64,000 nucleotides of DNA from Candidatus Levyibacteriota bacterium (GCA_018062815.1 JAGORM010000002.1:92325-156324), one strand, 5' to 3'. Positions 4,477-51,156 are shown, counted from the first letter of the stretch. Translations and numbers: made by a program. Notes: generated from the letters alone by a model not told the origin.

Positions 4477-5439
4477 TTAATCACCTCTTCTTGTTGCAAA
4501 TCCGCGAAGAAGTATGTTTAAATCCCGTGGATCCATGACTCCGTTATCATTTAAGTCAGAAAGTACTTTATATTCGTTTGTGCAATCTGTTCCAGCATAG
4601 CATGACAAAAGAATAGAATAGTCATTTATGTCTAATAAATTATTTGAAGATCCTTCTGATTGAATATCACCTGAGACCACCACAACAGGAGGTGTAGTCG
4701 CGGTTATACTTTGTGATAACTGATGAACTCCGGGTATAGTTTTTGTGAGTGAGTTTGCGGCGCGCACTTTTATGGTGTAAGGTCCGCTTGCAATATTATT
4801 AAATATTGCGTTTCCCTTATATACACCATTGTCATAGGTAAGTGTTGCGGTTGTTTTTCCTGCTTCAGTATTTTGCTCATCATATGCGTATACATCAAAT
4901 GCTCTGGAGGGGTGTTGCGGTTGGTTATTTTCTCCCAATGCAGTGTTTGAGCCAATTCCAGGAAGGGAAACTGCAAGAGTTATTGCTGCACCCTGTGATG
5001 TGCTCGGTGTTGTACTTAAAGCAGGAGAGGGTATGGGTGTTGCTGTAGGATTTGGAGTTGGAGTAACCATAATGCACTGAATGCAGTTGGTTTGATTTGG
5101 ATTATTAGGCGAGTCTTGGCAGGATTTTGCGAAACTTCCCTGATAGGGACCAGAGGGAATGTACTGCCAACATGAATATTGTCCGACTTCACAGGAGACA
5201 TGGTCGGTTCCGCCGCAATACTTAACTAATGTAGCGGAAGAAGGATTTTCGGATTCTGAGTTAGTTGTTGTAAAGTCCACGGAAGCTGCACGTTGACGGA
5301 TATCTTGCTGTTGGTTTGTAAGCATAACCGTTACCGGGATAGAAAGAATAAGAACAACAATTATCAGAGACCCTATCACCCTTTTTTTGGAAGAAAGGAA
5401 AAGTTCTTCAAAAATACTGCCAAAAGAGCTTGGATTCAT
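4477..5439 (-). CDS. secreted Pro/Thr-rich protein with a C-terminal dockerin-like Ca-binding repeat
   Basis: N-terminal TM is followed by LTNQQQDIRQRAAS. The C-terminus has GDIQSEGSSNNLLDINDYSILLSCYAG and SDLNDNGVMDPRDLNILLRGF. The second segment fits the dockerin loop D-x-N-x-N-G-x-x-D-x-x-D-L-x-x-L-L. Confidence 0.55.
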   Translation of the reverse strand: MNPSSFGSIFEELFLSSKKRVIGSLIIVVLILSIPVTVMLTNQQQDIRQRAASVDFTTTNSESENPSSATLVKYCGGTDHVSCEVGQYSCWQYIPSGPYQGSFAKSCQDSPNNPNQTNCIQCIMVTPTPNPTATPIPSPALSTTPSTSQGAAITLAVSLPGIGSNTALGENNQPQHPSRAFDVYAYDEQNTEAGKTTATLTYDNGVYKGNAIFNNIASGPYTIKVRAANSLTKTIPGVHQLSQSITATTPPVVVVSGDIQSEGSSNNLLDINDYSILLSCYAGTDCTNEYKVLSDLNDNGVMDPRDLNILLRGFATRRGD

Positions 5440-5517: not shown

Positions 5518-5964
5518 TTAGTTTTCTGTAGTTGAAACAGTACAGGATGCAAGAGCGTTAGGTAAATTGTTCTCCATAGGTTTAGACGGATCAAGAAGTG
5601 ATATTTTCCAAGTAGTTTCAGGTTTATCAAATTTATAGATTATTGTGTCTTCCTTTTTTTCAACAATTGAATATCCATCTGCGGGTTCAATGTATGGTTC
5701 AGGTGCATATGGGTATGAGACTACTAAAAGTTCAGATGTTTCCCCCGGTCTTATTGTTCCAGGCGTAAAGATACATGCGGGTGTACTATCTGCTGCTTGT
5801 TGTCTGACATCTTGCTGCTGATTTGCAAGATAAAATGTTAAGGGGACAGCACCTAACACAAACAATACAAAAAACACGCTAATTGTTCTTTGCGGAGAGG
5901 AAAATAGTGCTTTTCCTAGTACATACCCAATTGAGCGTTTTTCAACAACTTTCATTCCATACAT
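5518..5964 (-). CDS. small secreted protein sharing the TM-NQQQDxRQxAA N-terminal module with the 4477..5439 protein
   Basis: The N-terminus reads VFFVLFVLGAVPLTFYLANQQQDVRQQAAD. Confidence 0.45.
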   Translation of the reverse strand: MYGMKVVEKRSIGYVLGKALFSSPQRTISVFFVLFVLGAVPLTFYLANQQQDVRQQAADSTPACIFTPGTIRPGETSELLVVSYPYAPEPYIEPADGYSIVEKKEDTIIYKFDKPETTWKISLLDPSKPMENNLPNALASCTVSTTEN

Positions 5965-6075: not shown

Positions 6076-6648
6076 ATGGTACTTTCAGACAGAGATATAA
6101 AAAAAGCATTAGAGGAGAAACGAATTGTTATCTCTCCCCAGCCTGACATATTAACTCAACTAGGATCTTGCTCAATAGATTTACGATTAGGAAATTTGTT
6201 TAGAATTTTCGATCACAGTAAGTATCCGTTCATAGATCCATACAAAAAAGATTACGGTGCAGATATAACACGTGAAGTAGAACTTAATGGTACAGACCAG
6301 TTTATTATGCAACCTGGAGATTTTGTGCTTGCCGTAACAATGGAAAAAGTAACAATTCCTGATAATCTGATGGGTAGATTAGAGGGTAGATCGTCATTGG
6401 GGAGGATGGGAATAGTTGTTCATTCGACCGCATCTATTTTTGATCCGGGGTGGAATGGGAAATGTGTTTTAGAATTGGGTAATTTAGGGCGTATGGCTGT
6501 TGCCCTTACTCCTGGGATGAGAATTTGTGCAATGACCTTTGAAGAGTTAAGTTCGCCCTCAGAAATGCCATACAGTAAAAGACAGGACGCAAAATACGTT
6601 ATGCAAGAAGGGCCAATAGAAAGCAAAATTGCGCAAGAGAGCCAGTAG
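6076..6648 (+). CDS. dcd: dCTP deaminase
   Basis: MVLSDRDIKKALEEKRIVISP...SIDLRLGNLFRIF...SSLGRMGIVVH...FDPGWNG matches Dcd/dUTPase-fold signatures. Confidence 0.8.
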   Translation: MVLSDRDIKKALEEKRIVISPQPDILTQLGSCSIDLRLGNLFRIFDHSKYPFIDPYKKDYGADITREVELNGTDQFIMQPGDFVLAVTMEKVTIPDNLMGRLEGRSSLGRMGIVVHSTASIFDPGWNGKCVLELGNLGRMAVALTPGMRICAMTFEELSSPSEMPYSKRQDAKYVMQEGPIESKIAQESQ

Positions 6649-6710
6649 TAGCAATTAGATAGTCGTATATATTACATATTTGAGAATTTATACTTACTAC
6701 ATACTGCTTA

Positions 6711-7406
6711 ATGCATAATACTATTATGAAATACAATATAAATCTTGATATATCACTTAAAGAAAACCCATATCCTGGTTCTTATATAGCTCTTGAAGGA
6801 ATAGATGGAAGTGGGAAAACAACTCAGGTAGAATTGCTTGCAAAATACTTTAGGTCTCTTGGAAAAGAAGTAGTAACAACCAGGGAGCCAAGAAAAGAAG
6901 GACTAATTGGTGATTTAGTTCAGAAGGTGCTTTTAGGAAAGGAAAAATTACCCTCGGTTTCGCTACAGTATCTTTTCTCCGCGGATAGATCAGCGCACCA
7001 CGAAGAACTTGTAGAGCCGTCTTTAAAAGAGGGGAAGATTGTAATCTCTGATAGATGTTTTTGGTCGGCAATTGTTTATGGAATACTTGACAGAACAGGC
7101 GGTAAGTATGACACTAACGTTTCTGATTTATTATTAATTTCACAATCAATTCTTTCTATGTATCATCAATTCATCATCCCTGACCATACGTTTTATCTTA
7201 GAATTTCTCTTGAAACGGCAATTAAAAGACTGAGTGGGAAAAAAGAAACTGTAGAAATTTATGAGGAAAAAAGTAAACTTGAAAAACTTATTACTGGGTA
7301 TGACTTCTTAGAGAAAAAGTTTTCAGATAACATAATAACGTTAAGTGGTGAAGGGGATACTGGTATGGTCACAAAACGTATTTTAGAAAGGATTAAAGAT
7401 AAGTGA
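6711..7406 (+). CDS. tmk: thymidylate (dTMP) kinase
   Basis: P-loop IALEGIDGSGKTTQVELLAKYF, then DRCFWSAIVYG (the DR(Y/F)xxS motif). Confidence 0.85.
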   Translation: MHNTIMKYNINLDISLKENPYPGSYIALEGIDGSGKTTQVELLAKYFRSLGKEVVTTREPRKEGLIGDLVQKVLLGKEKLPSVSLQYLFSADRSAHHEELVEPSLKEGKIVISDRCFWSAIVYGILDRTGGKYDTNVSDLLLISQSILSMYHQFIIPDHTFYLRISLETAIKRLSGKKETVEIYEEKSKLEKLITGYDFLEKKFSDNIITLSGEGDTGMVTKRILERIKDK

Positions 7407-7942
7407 TTTTAGAACCCAAGTTGCTTTTACAATTAGTTAAGAAAAATAAACTTGTTGAAAATCTTGCGGATAGGGAGTTAACAAATCCAGAGGGTGCAGG
7501 ATTTGATCTTCGAATTGGTAAGGTTTTTAAACTTCAGGGAGACTCATTTTTAGGAATTGATGAGCGTAAAACTCCAGATGTAAAACTTGTTGCAGAATTT
7601 AATCCTAAAAAGATATCTAAAATTGTTATAAAGCCGGGAGAAATTTATCTGACAGAAACATATGAAAAATTTAATATGCCGCTTGATTTAGTCGGGATTC
7701 TAAAGCCCAGAACAACACTTCAAAGGTCGGGAATTATTGCGCGTATGGCAATTGTTGACCCGGGGTATAGTGGGACGGTTCATCCGCTTTTATATAATGC
7801 CGGACCGGCAACTGTGACAATTGAAATGGGTGCGCGGTATATTTTTGCAATGTTTATGGAAATAAAAGGAAAAGGAAGTCAGTATAGAGGGCAATGGCAA
7901 GGTGGACGCGTCGCCGCAACAAAAAAAGAGAGACAAGTTTAA
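7403..7942 (+). CDS. second dCTP deaminase/dUTPase-fold protein; possibly a Dcd-type dUTP diphosphatase
   Basis: GAGFDLRIGKVF...KPRTTLQRSGIIARMAIVDPGYSG shows the Dcd/Dut family jelly-roll motifs but is distinct from 6076..6648. The start overlaps the tmk stop by 4 bp. Confidence 0.65.
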   Translation: MILEPKLLLQLVKKNKLVENLADRELTNPEGAGFDLRIGKVFKLQGDSFLGIDERKTPDVKLVAEFNPKKISKIVIKPGEIYLTETYEKFNMPLDLVGILKPRTTLQRSGIIARMAIVDPGYSGTVHPLLYNAGPATVTIEMGARYIFAMFMEIKGKGSQYRGQWQGGRVAATKKERQV

Positions 7943-8597
7943 CTCCTCTATGAGTTCTTACAGAGCATACATCTTTGATCTAGATGGAACGATTACTAAT
8001 ACTATGGTAGTTTGGTTAGATCTTTTTAGGCAAGCACTTGCTCATTTTAAGGTCCCATCACCAGAAGATTCTATGATTATGAAATACACCCATGATTGGA
8101 GAGAGATGGTAAACCTTGGGCTACCAGAAGAAAAAGTCTTGGAATTTTCTTCTTACATGACAGAAAAAGCACATACCCATTTGCCTGAAGCAGCATTTCA
8201 TGTGGGTGCTTATGAAACGCTCGATTCACTGAAAAACAACAGGGAAAAAATTGCAATATTTTCCAATATGGATCGTCCGTTATTTGAATCTGCTATAAAA
8301 CATAGGAATTTACATACCATTACGTCTGTTACGATTGCTGGAACTGACGTGCCTCACAGAAAGCCAAAACCTGACGGAATACTACGCGCATTGGAACTTC
8401 TAAAAATTCCAAAAAAAGAACATACAAACGTTGTTTATATAGGAGATAAAGAAACTGATATTCAATCAGCGCGCGCTGCTGGGGTTACTAGTATCTTGTA
8501 CTATCCAGCATCCCATCAGAACATGTATAAATTAGAGGAATTAAAGCTGCATAAACCGGATCGCATTATTACGGATTGGTCACAGCTCTTAACTTGA
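7902..8597 (+). CDS. HAD-superfamily hydrolase (phosphatase; plausible nucleotidase)
   Basis: Motif I reads YIFDLDGTITNT and motif IV reads VYIGDKETDIQSARAAG. The true start is probably the internal Met MSSYRAYIF near 7947. Confidence 0.7.
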   Translation: MDASPQQKKRDKFNSSMSSYRAYIFDLDGTITNTMVVWLDLFRQALAHFKVPSPEDSMIMKYTHDWREMVNLGLPEEKVLEFSSYMTEKAHTHLPEAAFHVGAYETLDSLKNNREKIAIFSNMDRPLFESAIKHRNLHTITSVTIAGTDVPHRKPKPDGILRALELLKIPKKEHTNVVYIGDKETDIQSARAAGVTSILYYPASHQNMYKLEELKLHKPDRIITDWSQLLT

Positions 8598-8634
8598 AAA
8601 AACGCTTTAAAGAGTTTATAAATAAACAGTCATT

Positions 8635-9627
8635 ATGGCAAACCAAAAACATCAGGAATATCAATATTTAGACTTACTGAAAGAAGCCTTAGAGCATGGG
8701 GAACGCAAGGTTGATCGTGGGACAGATATAAAGCTGTATAGTTTGTTTGGTCGTCAAACTCGATACGACTTGTCAGAAGGATTTCCGCTTTTGACCACTA
8801 AAAAAGTTTACTGGAAGGGTGTTATTCATGAACTTGCGTGGTTTATGTCAGGCGACACAAATATTAAATATTTAGTGGATAACAACGTACATATCTGGGA
8901 CGACTACCCATACAAAATTTTTAAAACAAAAAATGCTAAATCTAAATTCACAAAAGATGAGTTTATTGAAAAAATTCGGGAGGACGCAAAATTTGCAAAA
9001 AAGTGGGGAGACCTTCCTCGGATATATGGAGAAATGTGGAGGAAATGGCCTACCCATTCGGCAAGCTCAGGGCGAGCTAAAAAACCTCGAACAATTGATC
9101 AGTTGGCCTGGGTGATGCAGGAGTTAAAAGAGGATCCAGATGCAAAAAATGCAATTGTTACTTCCTGGAATCCAGAATATATGTATACCATGGCGTTGAA
9201 AAAGGAGGCAAATAGATTTCCCATCTGCCACAACATGTATCAAGTTTCCAGGCGTGGGAACAAGTTATCATTACAGCTCTATCAAAGAAGCGCAGACTTG
9301 TTCTTAGGAGTTCCATTTAATATTGCTTCATATTCTCTGCTTATCATTATTCTTGCAAACATTATGGATTTAGAACCCGGAGAATTTATTCATACCTTTG
9401 GAGACGCGCATATTTATGAAAATCATATACCACAGGTAAAAGAACAGTTAACTCGTGTGCCAAGACCTTTTCCAAAGATAAAAATAAATCGGAAAATAAA
9501 ATCTATTGATGATTTTAAAGCAGAGGATATTGAGCTTTTAGAATATGATCCGTATCCTGCCATGAAAGCAGAGCTGACAGTTGCGGGAGGTCTGTATGAC
9601 AAAAAAACCGGCAAAATGGCCGGATGA
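8635..9627 (+). CDS. thyA: thymidylate synthase (ThyA), long form with an about 50-aa insertion
   Basis: LLTTKKVYWKGVIHELAWFMSGDTNIKYL, the active-site region FPICHNMYQ, and DLFLGVPFNIASYSLL. Confidence 0.85.
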   Translation: MANQKHQEYQYLDLLKEALEHGERKVDRGTDIKLYSLFGRQTRYDLSEGFPLLTTKKVYWKGVIHELAWFMSGDTNIKYLVDNNVHIWDDYPYKIFKTKNAKSKFTKDEFIEKIREDAKFAKKWGDLPRIYGEMWRKWPTHSASSGRAKKPRTIDQLAWVMQELKEDPDAKNAIVTSWNPEYMYTMALKKEANRFPICHNMYQVSRRGNKLSLQLYQRSADLFLGVPFNIASYSLLIIILANIMDLEPGEFIHTFGDAHIYENHIPQVKEQLTRVPRPFPKIKINRKIKSIDDFKAEDIELLEYDPYPAMKAELTVAGGLYDKKTGKMAG

Positions 9628-9662
9628 GGTTGGTAGTAAGTAGACAGTAGTATGTATTAAGT

Positions 9663-10037
9663 ATGAATACGAAAATACATTCATTTACAGACTTGAATGC
9701 TTGGAAAGAGTCTCACATGTTAGTACTTCAAATATATAAAATAACAAAAGAATTTTCTGCGGATGAAAAGTTTGGACTTGTAGACCAGATGAGAAGATGT
9801 GCGGTGTCAATTAGTAGTAATATTGCGGAAGGATTTTTCAGGAGAACAAAAAAAGAAAAAGCCCAATTTTTCTATATGGCACTTGGATCTTTAACAGAAC
9901 TTCAGAATCAGCTATTAATCTCTCGTGATTTAACGTATATTGATAACAAGACGTTTACGGATTTAGCCGAGCAAACAGTAACCATAAGTAAACTTGTTAA
10001 TGGTTTGGTGAAGAGTTCGAGGAATTTTAATACATAA
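9663..10037 (+). CDS. four-helix-bundle protein (23S rRNA intervening-sequence protein family)
   Basis: DLNAWKESHMLVLQIYKITKEF...DQMRRCAVSISSNIAEGF is the hallmark pattern of that family. Confidence 0.65.
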   Translation: MNTKIHSFTDLNAWKESHMLVLQIYKITKEFSADEKFGLVDQMRRCAVSISSNIAEGFFRRTKKEKAQFFYMALGSLTELQNQLLISRDLTYIDNKTFTDLAEQTVTISKLVNGLVKSSRNFNT

Positions 10038-10047
10038 TACTTACTAC

Positions 10048-10488
10048 ATGATACACAATACTCGTATTTCTACCGTTGCAGCGCTTGCGTTTAAAGATGA
10101 TAAAGTTCTTTTAGTAAGGCATGGAGAAGCGGCCCATCATTTAACAGGCGTATATGGCTTACCAGGAGGAAGACTTGACGAGGGTGAAAATCTTTTAGAC
10201 GGTGCAGCACGCGAATTTCAAGAAGAAACTGGGCTTATTGCTGATAAATCATCAATGGTTCAGATTCCAATCAGTTACGAAGCAGAAATTCCCAGAAAAG
10301 GTGGGGAAATTTTAAGTACATCATGGAGCGTGTTTTTAGTAAAAAATTACCAAGGAGATTTGTTGGATTCAAAAGACACTGATGAAACAATTCCCGAATG
10401 GGTTGAAGTAGGCAGCGTAGCAGAACTTAATTTGCTGCCGAATACAGAAGATGCTATAAAGGAGGGGCAACAAATTCTTAACTTATAA
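10048..10488 (+). CDS. NUDIX hydrolase
   Basis: The Nudix box reads GLPGGRLDEGENLLDGAAREFQEETGL. Confidence 0.75.
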   Translation: MIHNTRISTVAALAFKDDKVLLVRHGEAAHHLTGVYGLPGGRLDEGENLLDGAAREFQEETGLIADKSSMVQIPISYEAEIPRKGGEILSTSWSVFLVKNYQGDLLDSKDTDETIPEWVEVGSVAELNLLPNTEDAIKEGQQILNL

Positions 10489-10491
10489 TTC

Positions 10492-11058
10492 ATGATACAA
10501 AATACCAGGGTTAGTATAATTGCGGCAATTGGGAAAAACAGAGAACTTGGAAAAGAAGATAGACTGCTGTGGGAAATTCCAGAGGATGCAAAATTTTTTA
10601 GAGACATGACACGCGGGCATGTGAATATTATGGGAAGGAAAACCTATGAATCTTTGCTTCACTATTACAAAGGAAAGCCCATGCCAAAAAGAGTAAGTGT
10701 TGTAGTGACTCGTGACGCAAAATATAAAGCAGCCGATGGTGTATTTGTTTTTACTGACATGAAAGAGGCGGTAGAGTTTGCCAAAAAAAAAGAGCAGGAG
10801 ATTTCTAAGATTGAAGAGTATAAGAATGCACGAGACCTAAGGTCTCTGGAGGCTGAAGTGTATGACATAGGTGGAGGACAGATTTATGCGCTTGGTCTTC
10901 CCTTTGCTGATAGATTATATCTGACATTTGTAGACGGTGAATTTCCTCAGGCAGATGCCTTTTTTCCGGAATTTCCAGAATTTACTAAAGTTGTGGGGGA
11001 GAAAAAAGGTTTAAAGGGTGAATATGATTACACATTTAAAACTTTAGAACGGGGATGA
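10492..11058 (+). CDS. folA: dihydrofolate reductase
   Basis: VSIIAAIGKNRELGKEDRLLWEIPEDAKFFRDMTRGHVNIMGRKTYES and the C-terminal DIGGGQIYALGLP. Confidence 0.85.
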   Translation: MIQNTRVSIIAAIGKNRELGKEDRLLWEIPEDAKFFRDMTRGHVNIMGRKTYESLLHYYKGKPMPKRVSVVVTRDAKYKAADGVFVFTDMKEAVEFAKKKEQEISKIEEYKNARDLRSLEAEVYDIGGGQIYALGLPFADRLYLTFVDGEFPQADAFFPEFPEFTKVVGEKKGLKGEYDYTFKTLERG

Positions 11059-11119: not shown

Positions 11120-11575
11120 ATGAAAAAGCTGAAGAAGTATGAATTTTATCCACCTCACAAGCATTTTGTGCGTTTTCTTAAGCGTGTTGAATATAAAAGA
11201 TATTTTTTGTACTTAATCCGTTGGCAATTATCAACTCCTATACTTGCACCCATTGTAGCCTGGGTAAAACATTCACCATCTATTCTTGGTACTCCTGAAG
11301 ATTGGTATGCTGCGGGAATCGCAAATCTTATAGGAGGTCTTATTTTCTTTTGGGTTGACCTTTTTATATTCAAATCTCAATCTTTGGCTACACAATGGGA
11401 AATTAAAGAAAATATTAGATGTACGGATTGCAGAAAGATTGCTCGTGGTTATAGACTAGTTAAAACACCAAAATATGACAGGACAAAAGATATAAATCCT
11501 GAATTTAGGTGTGAAAATTGTTCTATGAAAAAGTCAAAAAAATTAAGAGAAAGAGGTATTTCTACTGAAGGGTGA
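11120..11575 (+). CDS. hypothetical membrane protein with a C-terminal CxxC...CxxC zinc-ribbon
   Basis: Two predicted TM helices, then CTDCRK...CENCSMKK. Confidence 0.4.
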   Translation: MKKLKKYEFYPPHKHFVRFLKRVEYKRYFLYLIRWQLSTPILAPIVAWVKHSPSILGTPEDWYAAGIANLIGGLIFFWVDLFIFKSQSLATQWEIKENIRCTDCRKIARGYRLVKTPKYDRTKDINPEFRCENCSMKKSKKLRERGISTEG

Positions 11576-15496: not shown

Positions 15497-16852
15497 TTAA
15501 GGTAGGGGGAACTTTATTGCAAATTCTTTAACCTCACGACCAATTTTTTGTAAATTTTTATTACTCATTATTTCTTTTTTCTGGTTTTTCCACCATTCAG
15601 CTCTTTTTTCTTTCTCTTTTGGAGCTTCATTTCCCAAAACCTGATTTACCGCGTCATTCATCCATTTTGCTACTTTTTTCATGTCCCGTTCCTTGAGCCC
15701 CCGAGTAGTTATAGCGGGAGTTCCCAATCTGATTCCGGACGGGTAGAATGGTGGGTTAGTATCAAAAGGCACGCCGTTTTTGTTTAGCACTATGCCTGCT
15801 TGCTCTAGTGCAAGCGCTGCTACATTCCCGCTTACTTTTTTGTTTCTAAGGTCTATTAAAATCAGATGATTGTCTGAGCCTCCGCTAACTAAACTAAAAT
15901 TATATTTAAGTAGCTCCTCAGCAAGTGCTTTGGTATTTTTTACAATCTGTTCACCATATCTTTTAAATTTTGGGGAACTTGCTTCTTTTATGGAAACAGC
16001 AATTGCTGCTGTTTGATTATCATGTGGGCCTCCCTGAAGCCCAGGAATAATAGCAGTATCAATAAGCTTTGGTAGATCAGGGTTTTTTGTAATTCCCTTT
16101 TCAGTTACCATAATAAGTCCCCCCCTGGGCCCTCTTAACGTCTTGTGAGTTGTTGTGGTTACAATATGTGCATAGGGAACAGGAGAGGGGTGAACGCCTG
16201 CTACAACTAATCCTGCGATGTGTGAGATATCAGCAAGTAAATAAGCTCCTACCTTTTCCGCAATAGCACCAAATTTCTTAAAATCTATAATTCTGGGATA
16301 TGCAGTGAAACCACAGACAATAATATCTGGTTTTTCAGCTAATGCCAGTTTTTCAATAGCCGCATAGTCAAGTTTTCCGTCTTTCCCCAGTTCATATAAT
16401 ACAGACTTAAAGAACTTTCCTGATGCTGATTGAGGCTGTCCGTGAGTTAAATGCCCTCCAAAGGCAAGAGAAAGTCCCATTATCTTTCCTTTTAACGGTT
16501 GCAAAAGTGCAAAGTATACAGCAAGATTCATAACTGACCCTGAAAGGGGCTGCACGTTAACATAGGGGATATCCAGTAATTTTTTAATTCTCTCTTGAGC
16601 CAAAAGTTCAACCTCATCAGCGACCGCGTTTCCCTGGTAGTATCTTTTCTTAGGATATCCCTCTGAATATTTGTTGTTAAGACTGGTACCAAGTGCTTCA
16701 AGAACCGCAGAAGATGCGTAATTTTCTGAGGGGATCATTTCTAGGACTTCTTTTTGTCTCTTGTCCTCTGCTTTTATAAGTTTAAAAATTTCAGGATCTT
16801 GCTGCTTGAGGTTCATACAGTTCAATATACTAAAAAAAATCCTTACAAACAA
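15497..16852 (-). CDS. glyA: serine hydroxymethyltransferase
   Basis: EMIPSENYASSAVLEALGTSLNNKYSEGYP...THKTLRGPRGGLIM. The likely true start is MNLKQQD near 16816. Confidence 0.9.
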   Translation of the reverse strand: MFVRIFFSILNCMNLKQQDPEIFKLIKAEDKRQKEVLEMIPSENYASSAVLEALGTSLNNKYSEGYPKKRYYQGNAVADEVELLAQERIKKLLDIPYVNVQPLSGSVMNLAVYFALLQPLKGKIMGLSLAFGGHLTHGQPQSASGKFFKSVLYELGKDGKLDYAAIEKLALAEKPDIIVCGFTAYPRIIDFKKFGAIAEKVGAYLLADISHIAGLVVAGVHPSPVPYAHIVTTTTHKTLRGPRGGLIMVTEKGITKNPDLPKLIDTAIIPGLQGGPHDNQTAAIAVSIKEASSPKFKRYGEQIVKNTKALAEELLKYNFSLVSGGSDNHLILIDLRNKKVSGNVAALALEQAGIVLNKNGVPFDTNPPFYPSGIRLGTPAITTRGLKERDMKKVAKWMNDAVNQVLGNEAPKEKEKRAEWWKNQKKEIMSNKNLQKIGREVKEFAIKFPLP

Positions 16853-39575: not shown

Positions 39576-40238
39576 ATGATAAATGTGCTTATCCCTACTG
39601 GGAAAATGGACCTGCTTGTATCCGTATACATTTTTTGCATAGTTGCCTCTGAGTTAATGGGTGCAAAGACATTTCCTCTTGTAAATATTTTAGGTTATCA
39701 ACTGAATGCAAGTATTGCGATATTTTTATTTCCTTTTATTTTTACCATAAACGATATTGTCGCTGAAGTATACGGTAAAGAGCGCGCAAGAAGTGTTGTA
39801 AGATCAGGAATTTTTATTGTGTTCCTTTTATTTCTTTTCACTATTCTCGCAACATCCCTGCCTCCATCTATGAGATTTACAAGAAGTGAGAGTGCATATG
39901 ACACAATTTTTAGTTTTTCCACAAGACTTGCAGCAGCATCACTTATTGCGCTAATAATTTCAGAATTTACAGACGTGTATATTTTTTTAAAAATTAAAAA
40001 AAAATTAGGTCACAAAGCACTTTGGTTTCGTAACAACATCTCAAATGTTATAGCTCAATTGTGCGATACGGTTTTATTTATAACCTTAGCTTTTTACGCG
40101 CTTGATAAGCCCGTTCACGACAATATAATATTTCTTTCAAGTATAATACTTCCATATTGGCTTCTGAAGTGTTTCGCATCTATAATTGAGACTCCTTTTG
40201 TCTACTTAGGTGTTAAGTGGCTAAGAGAGAAAAAGTAA
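39576..40238 (+). CDS. queuosine-precursor transporter (YhhQ/DUF165 family)
   Basis: ASIAIFLFPFIFTINDIVAEVYGKERARSVV... with 6 TM helices is typical of YhhQ. Confidence 0.6.
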   Translation: MINVLIPTGKMDLLVSVYIFCIVASELMGAKTFPLVNILGYQLNASIAIFLFPFIFTINDIVAEVYGKERARSVVRSGIFIVFLLFLFTILATSLPPSMRFTRSESAYDTIFSFSTRLAAASLIALIISEFTDVYIFLKIKKKLGHKALWFRNNISNVIAQLCDTVLFITLAFYALDKPVHDNIIFLSSIILPYWLLKCFASIIETPFVYLGVKWLREKK

Positions 40239-40775
40239 GTGTCCTCCATGAATATTATTCTACTTGCGGTCTCCAGCATTAATGGGAAAATAACGTCTGA
40301 TAAGAATTCCGATATTTATATGTGGACAAGTAAGGAGGATAAAGAAATATTTTTTTCAGAAATTAATAACGCAGAAGTTATATGTATGGGATCAAAAACA
40401 TACGACTCAGCAAGGCATCTTATGGTACACAAAAAGGGGAGAGTAAGAATAGTCTTTACAAGAAACAAAAAAAGATACAAAAATGAGGAAATACCAGGAT
40501 GTCTTGAATTTACTACAGAAGCACCAAAAAAGATTATAGCTAAATACAAACAAAATGGGGTAAGGCAAGTGTTAGTGGTTGGGGGAGGAGAGATTAATTC
40601 ACTATTTCTCAAACAAAAACTTATTTCCAAAATTTACCTTACCATAGAGCCGGTCATTTTAGGCAAAGGAAAACCTCTCATTAAAGATGTTGAAGCATAT
40701 TGTAATCTAAAGCTAGAGAGCGCTAAGAAGTTAAATAAAAAAGGTACCATGCGTTTAATTTATAAAGTGGTCTAG
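40239..40775 (+). CDS. dihydrofolate-reductase-like (RibD C-terminal/YwjB family) protein
   Basis: MNIILLAVSSINGKIT...VLVVGGGEINSLFLKQKLISKIYLTIEPVILGKG. Confidence 0.55.
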   Translation: MSSMNIILLAVSSINGKITSDKNSDIYMWTSKEDKEIFFSEINNAEVICMGSKTYDSARHLMVHKKGRVRIVFTRNKKRYKNEEIPGCLEFTTEAPKKIIAKYKQNGVRQVLVVGGGEINSLFLKQKLISKIYLTIEPVILGKGKPLIKDVEAYCNLKLESAKKLNKKGTMRLIYKVV

Positions 40776-50112: not shown

Positions 50113-51156
50113 TTAGCTCATAATCCCAGTAATCATTGCTACTACTTTATTTTCCTCATTGTCTAATCCGTCTATTTTTTTTAGTTTCTTAGCGTTTGCC
50201 ATTTTTTCCCAGTTTGAGAGTATAGAGCCTTTTATGTAAGCATCTATAACATGAGGATGAATGTAGTATTTTCTGCAGGTATTAGGTTTATTTCGCAAGT
50301 GACTTGCTACTTTTTTTACAATTTCAACAATATTTTTTTTTGAATCTTCCTCTTGAGCTGGAATTCCTGCTTTGTCAAATGCCGTGGCTGCAAGAACAGT
50401 TCCTCCCCAGGTTCTAAAGTCTTTTGCTGTAATTTCTGCACCTGTTATCTCCTGAAGATATGTATTTACATCTTGGGAGGAAATAGATTGAATAATTCCT
50501 TCTTCATCTTTGTATTCAAATAGATCTTGACCGGGAAGCTCTTTGCATCTTCTTACAATTTTTGCTACTTTTTTATTTTTGATACTTACATTGTGGTATA
50601 CGCCTGACTTTCCCTTGAACTGAAAAACAATATTTGATTTATAGGAAACACTTGCGTGTTTATTCTTGAGCGTAGTAAGTCCATAGGATTTATTCTCGCG
50701 CTCGTATTCCTCGTTACCAATTCTGATTAGTGTGTTTTCAAGAAGCCAGACCACAGCAGATATTACTTTTCTTCTCTGAATTCCCATAAGTGTTAGATCC
50801 TGCTTGACGGTAGCTCTTATTTTGGGAAGATGCTGTGCAAACTCCAAGAGATGTGAAAATTTTTCTTGCTGTGAAATTTGATTCCAAAGCGGGTTGTACC
50901 TATATTGTTTTCTTCCCCGAGCGTCATATCCTGTTGCTTGAAGATGTCCGTTTGCATGAGAGCATATCCAAACATTTTTGTATGCGGGGGGTATTGCAAG
51001 TTTTTGTATTCGATCAACTACTTTTTTATCTGTAATTTTTTTTCCTTCGGTATCAAAATACTCAAACGTGTTTCTGACTCTTTTTCTTGTGTATCCAGGT
51101 TTTTTGTCCGTAGAGTATCTTAGGTTTGTATTCTTTAGGAAATCGTTATCAGTCAT
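50113..51156 (-). CDS. type IB DNA topoisomerase (poxvirus/bacterial TopIB type)
   Basis: N-term LRYSTDKKPGYTRKRVRN...IPPAYKNVWIC...GYDARGRKQYRYNP. The C-terminal RKYYIHP region is the candidate active-site Tyr. Confidence 0.7.
   Translation of the reverse strand: MTDNDFLKNTNLRYSTDKKPGYTRKRVRNTFEYFDTEGKKITDKKVVDRIQKLAIPPAYKNVWICSHANGHLQATGYDARGRKQYRYNPLWNQISQQEKFSHLLEFAQHLPKIRATVKQDLTLMGIQRRKVISAVVWLLENTLIRIGNEEYERENKSYGLTTLKNKHASVSYKSNIVFQFKGKSGVYHNVSIKNKKVAKIVRRCKELPGQDLFEYKDEEGIIQSISSQDVNTYLQEITGAEITAKDFRTWGGTVLAATAFDKAGIPAQEEDSKKNIVEIVKKVASHLRNKPNTCRKYYIHPHVIDAYIKGSILSNWEKMANAKKLKKIDGLDNEENKVVAMITGIMS

Follow-up and report, generated by a model that had tools for sequence, protein, structure and literature searches.

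A Dcd-fold protein encoded in a conserved thymidylate operon of Patescibacteria is a candidate archaeal-type dUTPase

The stretch of DNA analysed here, referred to as the window (64,000 nt of Candidatus Levyibacteriota, GCA_018062815.1 JAGORM010000002.1:92325-156324), carries a compact thymidylate operon in which two genes of the Dcd/Dut fold are encoded, namely dcd and a second gene of 179 amino acids (aa), called X throughout, as is its product. A slight preference is given, judging from sequence, to the reading that X is an archaeal-type (Dcd-like) dUTPase of a thymidylate operon conserved in the candidate phyla radiation (CPR, or Patescibacteria), with dcd providing the upstream step. X is a member of a compact, conserved and essentially Patescibacteria-only family that is sister to the archaeal Dcd-like dUTPases and fits neither of the two curated families to which it might have been assigned. 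Relatives were sought in one genome per GTDB species, which gave at least 549 loci; virtually all of them belong to Patescibacteria, as judged by the best 80 of these species-level loci, from which the gene-order counts given below were also taken.

The proposal of the initial annotation that two distinct Dcd/Dut-fold genes are present is borne out by Pfam and NCBIfam matches and by the low identity between their products (28%, 56 bits), which marks dcd and X as ancient paralogues and excludes a recent dcd duplication as the source of X. Greater similarity (33% identity, 83.6 bits) links X with the P. furiosus dUTPase, an enzyme summarised in PMC5122711 as a dUTPase without deaminase activity. 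The Dcd-fold proteins were aligned with E. coli Dcd (1xs1), M. tuberculosis 2qxx, M. jannaschii 1ogh and B. halodurans 4xjc as deaminase and bifunctional references, and with P. furiosus P45 (9ln0), T. pacificus (8y1w), S. tokodaii (2yzj/2zdc) and 9w59 as dUTPase references, all sequences being taken from PDB searches. The phmmer matches of X in the PDB were, in order, 9ln0 (dUTPase P45), 8y1w (the T. pacificus dUTPase), 9w59 and 2yzj. When an AlphaFold2 model of X (pLDDT 84) was compared by Foldseek, the S. tokodaii dUTPase (2yzj, 2zdc) came first, followed by the B. halodurans Dcd:dut, the T. pacificus dUTPase and P45. In a bootstrapped neighbour-joining tree all of the Dcds of the Glu/His type, including the dcd of the window, were split from X and the archaeal Duts with 90.5% bootstrap, which places X apart from the plain dCTP deaminases and on the Dut side. 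Sequence, fold and phylogeny thus all group X with the Dcd-like Duts rather than with the Dcds.

The active site gives a more mixed answer. With deaminase residues in dcd given in E. coli numbering and those of X in its own numbering, X lacks the deaminase Glu (Leu129 is found at the E138 position) and its His121 loop is shortened by a two-residue deletion. It retains Asp35 of motif I, Arg103-Thr104-Thr105 of motif II, Asp119 and Tyr122 of motif III and Arg145 of motif IV, and its C-terminus, from Y161, is a Dcd-type YRGQWQGGR lid. The residue set of the archaeal dUTPases (motif I Asp, motif II Arg-Ser/Thr, motif III Asp with an aromatic, a C-terminal lid and no Glu) is therefore found in X, with Phe at the motif-IV Gln position as the departure from it. 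The full active-site signature reads E54 E85 Q107 D119 H127 A133 F148. X is not a canonical trimeric dUTPase: it scores 29.9 bits on TIGR00576 (curated NCBIfam cut-off 102.55), it has no motif V, and its PF00692 match is limited to residues 72-145 (30.3 bits).

Like X, the archaeal Dcd-like dUTPases (P45/PF1996, T. pacificus, S. tokodaii and the MJ1102 type) have neither the deaminase Glu nor the His121 loop; they have in common with it the motif III Asp with its aromatic and an (M/L)LYNA(S/G) strand, and in place of motif V they carry a Y-R/N-G-x-(Y/W)-Q-G lid, as X does. They are the best sequence and fold matches of X, yet the identity is only 25-33%. P. furiosus P45 is routinely mis-annotated as a dCTP deaminase, as are members of the X family. 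The differences are that these enzymes are archaeal, with RSS in motif II and Gln in motif IV, whereas X is bacterial, with RTT and Phe, and that they show no counterpart of the Asp-less His148 variant of the X family described below.

Whether a separate dUTPase is needed at all depends on the neighbouring dcd. This protein carries S111, R115, H121, A124, D128 and E138, the full deaminase set in the alignment with 1xs1, 2qxx and 1ogh, together with the His121 loop, and it scores well above the TIGR02274 cut-off; it is named "dCTP deaminase" by NCBI in the Levybacteria metagenome-assembled genome. Its motif IV is MRICA, with the Arg kept and Ala at the Gln position, and the operon orthologues have MRIC(A/S). 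The bifunctional Dcd:dut enzymes (MJ0430, Rv0321 and B. halodurans; 1ogh, 2qxx and 4xjc) resemble the dcd of the window in Ser, Arg, His, Asp and Glu, but all three have an (R/K)-x-x-Q motif IV (Mtb KIGQ, Mj RIGQ, B. halodurans RICQ) where the window dcd has R-I-C-A and the monofunctional E. coli Dcd has LIGA. The dcd product thus has the Glu of the bifunctional class (EC 3.5.4.30) without its motif-IV Gln, a residue which in trimeric dUTPases, together with the motif II Ser, hydrogen-bonds and activates the alpha-phosphate (PMC3905902). Since the position held by Gln in the three solved bifunctional enzymes is Ala in dcd, the latter is probably monofunctional and would release dUTP, in which case a separate dUTPase is needed; the use of this Gln as a marker is our own and is drawn from four enzymes only. 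Overall similarity cannot separate the two types (Mtb 157.8 bits, E. coli 157.3 bits), nor does the tree, with a bootstrap of 20% versus 6.5% on this question. X differs from the bifunctional enzymes in its missing Glu and for that reason cannot be one of the classical kind.

The same logic is found in the two-enzyme route of E. coli, where a monofunctional Dcd (S111/R115/E138, no motif-IV Gln) is followed by a separate dUTP pyrophosphatase that feeds ThyA. In E. coli, however, Dut is a canonical five-motif trimer, whereas the candidate here is a Dcd-fold paralogue, and in the window the genes form one operon with tmk, folA and glyA. No other gene of the dUTPase superfamily was found in the six frames of the 64-kb window, and neither thyX nor dut was seen among its annotated open reading frames (ORFs), Pfam annotation covering most, not all, of them. 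X is the only dUTPase candidate in the operon apart from a Nudix hydrolase which is not a universal member.

The suggestion that the second Dcd-like protein performs the dUTPase step, as a Dcd paralogue does in archaea, is accordingly favoured by its clustering, by the lost Glu and by its best solved relatives. Several observations weigh against it. X falls below both curated cut-offs, with 82.4 bits against 92.8 on the dCTP deaminase model TIGR02274, where the Glu and His loop are also lacking, and 79 bits against 130 on the archaeal Dut equivalog NF002598; its relatives score 48-110 bits on NF002598, all under the cut-off, and all those tested are below the TIGR02274 cut-off also. Motif IV departs from Arg-x-x-Gln, with Arg145 present and Phe148 at the Gln position; Gln is found there in P. 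furiosus, T. pacificus, 9w59, Mtb, Mj and B. halodurans, and S. tokodaii, alone among the reference enzymes annotated as dUTPases or bifunctional, has His. A third difficulty comes from within the family itself, since around 40% of the close relatives occupy the dcd-tmk-X-thyA slot as well and yet carry Gln, Ala or Pro where X has Asp119. In dUTPases the motif III Asp orients the attacking water, and its change to Asn abolishes the activity of the human enzyme (PMC4827122, PMC3905902).

Three active-site types could be distinguished by the residues at positions 54, 85, 107, 119, 127, 133 and 148. Type A1 has E E H D H A N and is found mostly in Parcubacteria; type A2, the lineage of the window, has E E Q D H A F; and type B, typically H K F Q T E H, occupies most of the other, largely Levybacteria-type, loci (L009 7960-8499, L010 10001-10540 and about 50 of L028-L091, where L numbers denote related loci), with His at the motif-IV Gln position. 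Despite these sharply distinct sets the scaffold is about 60% identical across the three types. The length is fixed at 179 aa, identity is 58-64% across different CPR phyla, and 42 columns are invariant in 20 family sequences down to 58% identity, the phosphate-, Mg- and sugar-binding motifs being invariant. The position of the deaminase Glu is Leu, Ala or Gly in the family, never Glu. No genome was seen with types A and B together, and where one metagenome-assembled genome carries two loci, the only such case, both copies are of type B.

The variation is far from random. Where Asp119 is absent, His148 is found in 45 of 46 sequences, and the residues at 107 and 148 change together, the pairs being (H,N), (Q,F) and (F/Y,H), which suggests, at the level of sequence, that catalysis has been re-wired rather than lost. 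From the same covariation it may be that Gln107 in the X of the window substitutes for the absent motif-IV Gln. It is tentatively possible, although we hold it less probable than a plain archaeal-type dUTPase, that the family represents a distinct branch of the dUTPase superfamily, one scaffold and one operon slot being shared by three mutually exclusive residue sets, either with relocated catalytic residues (His148 for Asp119, Gln107 for Gln148) or with a new nucleotide or regulatory role connected with Tmk and Ndk. One further point against the archaeal-type dUTPase is the association with dcd: a 190-aa dcd lies nearby in only one of 15 type A loci as compared with 41 of 49 type B loci, a bias that a simple model of Dcd followed by Dut does not predict.

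The Asp-less type B orthologues also form the main argument for the rather unlikely alternative that X, instead of being a dUTPase, is a nucleotide-binding protein of the Dcd fold whose role is a different one linked to Tmk and ThyA. It might sense dTTP/dUTP as a regulator, act as a partner without catalysis of its own, or be a pyrophosphatase that acts on some other (deoxy)nucleotide, for example dCTP. Removal of dUTP would then fall to a bifunctional Dcd, to the Nudix enzyme or to an unseen dut. The missing motif-IV Gln of the window X, the failure of both curated cut-offs, the four-base coupling to tmk, which recurs in 12 related loci, and the position of ndk next to X elsewhere all agree with such a role, and the operon Nudix offers an alternative deoxynucleoside triphosphate pyrophosphatase. 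Set against it are the strictly conserved polar set that types A and B each hold in the predicted active site, the matching of Asp119 loss by His148, which looks like re-wired catalysis, and the invariant phosphate-, Mg- and sugar-binding motifs; most operons have no Nudix, and dcd does not have the Gln seen in the bifunctional enzymes.

It is improbable that X instead deaminates dCTP in a non-canonical way, alone or as a bifunctional deaminase-dUTPase, with another catalytic residue such as His127, and is thus a functional paralogue of dcd. Most public annotations of family members read dCTP deaminase (X itself is named "hypothetical protein" by NCBI), X scores slightly higher on TIGR02274 than on NF002598, and type A loci mostly have no 190-aa dcd nearby. 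His127 is specific to type A and lies on the strand of the missing Glu, with His127-Pro128 being 97-99% conserved in that type, and a Sungbacteria Dcd paralogue (L007 5326-5910) has His exactly at the Glu position (RIHISN). The latter protein, of the Burkholderia/Anaplasma 4dhk/3km3 type, also has Ser at the Arg115 position. However, His127 is off the Glu position, which is Leu, Ala or Gly across the family; X has lost the His121 loop, a trait it has in common with archaeal Duts; the tree keeps it separate from the Dcds that contain the Glu; and a complete Dcd is already encoded next door. A CPR-rich Dcd clade that includes the functional Dictyostelium Dcd2 has been described (PMC10733785), and this is unlikely to be the X family because X has no Glu.

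That X might be a redundant and decaying dcd duplicate, a pseudoenzyme with no selected function, would agree with the fact that the deaminase Glu has been lost and that, in the lineage of the window, the motif-IV Gln has gone as well. The ancient divergence from dcd, the fixed length, the invariant columns and the cross-phylum identity, the occurrence at no fewer than 549 species loci and the conserved operon position speak so strongly to the contrary that this reading is extremely unlikely and is effectively refuted by the conservation data.

Taking X as an archaeal-type dUTPase, the pathway may be set out as follows. Dcd, by its family membership and complete catalytic residues, would convert dCTP to dUTP. 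X, translationally coupled to tmk, would hydrolyse dUTP to dUMP and pyrophosphate, with Asp35 predicted to hold the Mg-water, Arg103-Thr-Thr to form motif II, Asp119 to act as general base, Tyr122 to stack on the deoxyribose and Arg145 to serve in motif IV, while the C-terminal YRGQWQGGR would close as a lid in place of motif V. ThyA would then convert dUMP to dTMP and Tmk would yield dTDP, with FolA and GlyA expected to regenerate methylene-tetrahydrofolate. The claim that the entire dCTP-to-dTDP pathway and the recycling of folate are encoded here thus holds for the Dcd, Tmk, ThyA, FolA and GlyA steps, and is putative for the dUTPase step assigned to X.

The order dcd-tmk(-tmk)-X-thyA-(nudix)-folA-(glyA) is wholly or partly preserved at the majority of the best 80 loci, and because it recurs across Patescibacteria the arrangement is not due to chance. 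In both Micro- and Parcubacteria the neighbour of X is tmk, ndk or thyA. In Parcubacteria X stands beside ndk, or beside a thyA fusion gene in the company of either a further Dcd paralogue or a dCMP deaminase. In the fusion protein, of 484-510 aa, thymidylate synthase is preceded by an MtrA-like domain and followed by a pterin-binding DUF4346 domain, and the fusion gene adjoins that of the 179-aa protein (L006 8405-9937; L007 6636-8090; also L019, L021 and L023). In many related loci glyA lies at the end of the operon or nearby. The operon core consists of dcd, tmk, X, thyA, folA and glyA, with the HAD and four-helix-bundle genes as accessories; a 91%-identical relative (L008) has neither of the two.

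In the window, dcd, tmk, X, HAD, thyA, Nudix and folA are all found where the initial annotation had placed them, on the plus strand, and glyA, said to lie about 4.5 kb away, was placed 4.4 kb downstream on the opposite strand (Table 1). The description of the genes as tightly packed with 4-bp overlaps is right as to the packing and too generous as to the overlaps, there being only one, the GTGA shared by the tmk stop and the X start (7403-7406); the remaining intergenic gaps are 3-62 bp. A four-helix-bundle gene between thyA and the Nudix gene had been omitted. The HAD ORF can be extended upstream to GTG 7902, which would overlap X, and its start is most likely ATG 7950, as in the public gene calls.

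Table 1. Genes of the thymidylate operon and glyA, with positions in the window and the family matches on which the assignments are based (cut-offs are the curated NCBIfam values).
Gene	Position	Strand	Product	Family match
dcd	6076-6648	+	dCTP deaminase, 190 aa	TIGR02274 204.3 bits (cut-off 92.8)
tmk	6711-7406	+	thymidylate kinase, 231 aa	TIGR00041 129 bits (cut-off 83.25); PF02223 123.8 bits
X	7403-7942	+	Dcd-fold protein, 179 aa, candidate dUTPase	PF22769 75.8 bits
HAD	7950-8597	+	HAD-IA family phosphatase, 215 aa	PF13419 113 bits; no equivalog above cut-off
thyA	8635-9627	+	folate-dependent thymidylate synthase, 330 aa	NF002496 365.6 bits (cut-off 325); PF00303 323 bits
four-helix-bundle (23S_rRNA_IVP) gene	9663-10037	+	124 aa	PF05635 128 bits; TIGR02436 121.7 bits
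Nudix	10048-10488	+	Nudix hydrolase, 146 aa	PF00293 57.9 bits; no equivalog above cut-off
folA	10492-11058	+	dihydrofolate reductase, 188 aa, internal insertion	PF00186 139.4 bits, in two stretches
glyA	15497-16816	-	serine hydroxymethyltransferase, 439 aa as called	PF00464 on identical public contig

ThyA and Tmk are recognised at their curated cut-offs, and DHFR and SHMT by Pfam matches. The thyA translation shows PICH, with the catalytic Cys, and PFNIASY, with the Asn that specifies dUMP; its equivalog score above the cut-off and this dUMP-type Asn exclude the possibility that it is a dUMP/dCMP hydroxymethylase.

The HAD gene was found in only two of about 81 operons, those of the window and L036, and the Nudix gene stands between thyA and folA at some 17 of the 80 loci (about a quarter); for this reason neither is counted as core. 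The Nudix is probably an accessory passenger, a frequent but not universal member of the operon. The relatives of both in the PDB are generic, being MutT/MTH1-like for the Nudix and phosphoglycolate-phosphatase-like for the HAD protein, and the nucleotide-sanitising or dephosphorylating role suggested for the two in the initial annotation is putative. The four-helix-bundle family was found beside thyA or dcd at varying positions in about 11 loci, following thyA in L014, L048, L052, L053, L056, L069 and L078 and preceding dcd in L019, L026, L055 and L077. This gene is an insertion outside the pathway, its recurrence looking like that of a small mobile or insertion-prone gene.

Two, and once three, tandem thymidylate-kinase-like genes were observed 5' of X in many relatives, for example L008 (8650-10004) as well as L015, L020, L032, L034, L044, L045, L051, L054, L056, L057, L061, L062, L078 and L080, and the additional copy may phosphorylate a different deoxynucleoside monophosphate. 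It was also observed that GTDB records bearing the operon are often titled 'uncultured Gammaproteobacteria bacterium' (L013-L016, L018, L020 and others), apparently a placeholder mislabel, and that one locus with ndk next to X (L049) is titled Woesearchaeota archaeon, which may reflect a mis-binned contig or a real DPANN copy.

The genes surrounding the operon in the window are those of cellular housekeeping, namely rpsB, tsf, frr, recR, purB and uppS. A phage origin was rejected, given such neighbours and a PHROGs match to the generic "dCTP deaminase" phrog_1663 only, and a defence-system origin was likewise rejected, as PADLOC gave no match for either Dcd-fold protein or for six relatives. 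Directly 3' of folA is a 151-aa ORF (11120-11575), predicted to contain membrane segments and bearing a zinc-ribbon-like CxxC...CxxC motif at its C-terminus, for which there was no Pfam or NCBIfam match. Two adjoining minus-strand genes (4477-5439 and 5518-5964), also with no family match, encode predicted secreted proteins with a common N-terminal transmembrane helix followed by NQQQD(I/V)RQ(R/Q)AA. Farther away, a Vut_1 (YhhQ-like) transporter gene (39576-40238) is immediately followed by a RibD_C/DHFR-like reductase gene (40239-40775), the second DHFR-fold gene of the window and distinct from folA, and a bacterial type IB topoisomerase (Top1B_N_bact and Topoisom_I) is encoded at 50113-51156 on the minus strand.

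The metabolism of Patescibacteria is minimal, and how they are supplied with nucleotides is central to understanding their symbiotic way of life. The pathway considered here is an ordinary one that is widely conserved in CPR: many of these bacteria keep a compact route from dCTP to dTDP together with folate recycling, in which the dUTPase step would be performed by the candidate X. The family itself, of which no description was found in the literature searched, is uncharacterised and mis-annotated and shows unusual active-site variation. As its members, in at least 549 species genomes, are labelled "hypothetical" or "dCTP deaminase" in databases, pathway reconstructions and surveys of bacteria without a dUTPase (PMC5122711) could miscount them. 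The natural Asp-less His148 variants, for their part, provide a ready-made test of how fixed the mechanism of the dUTPase superfamily is.

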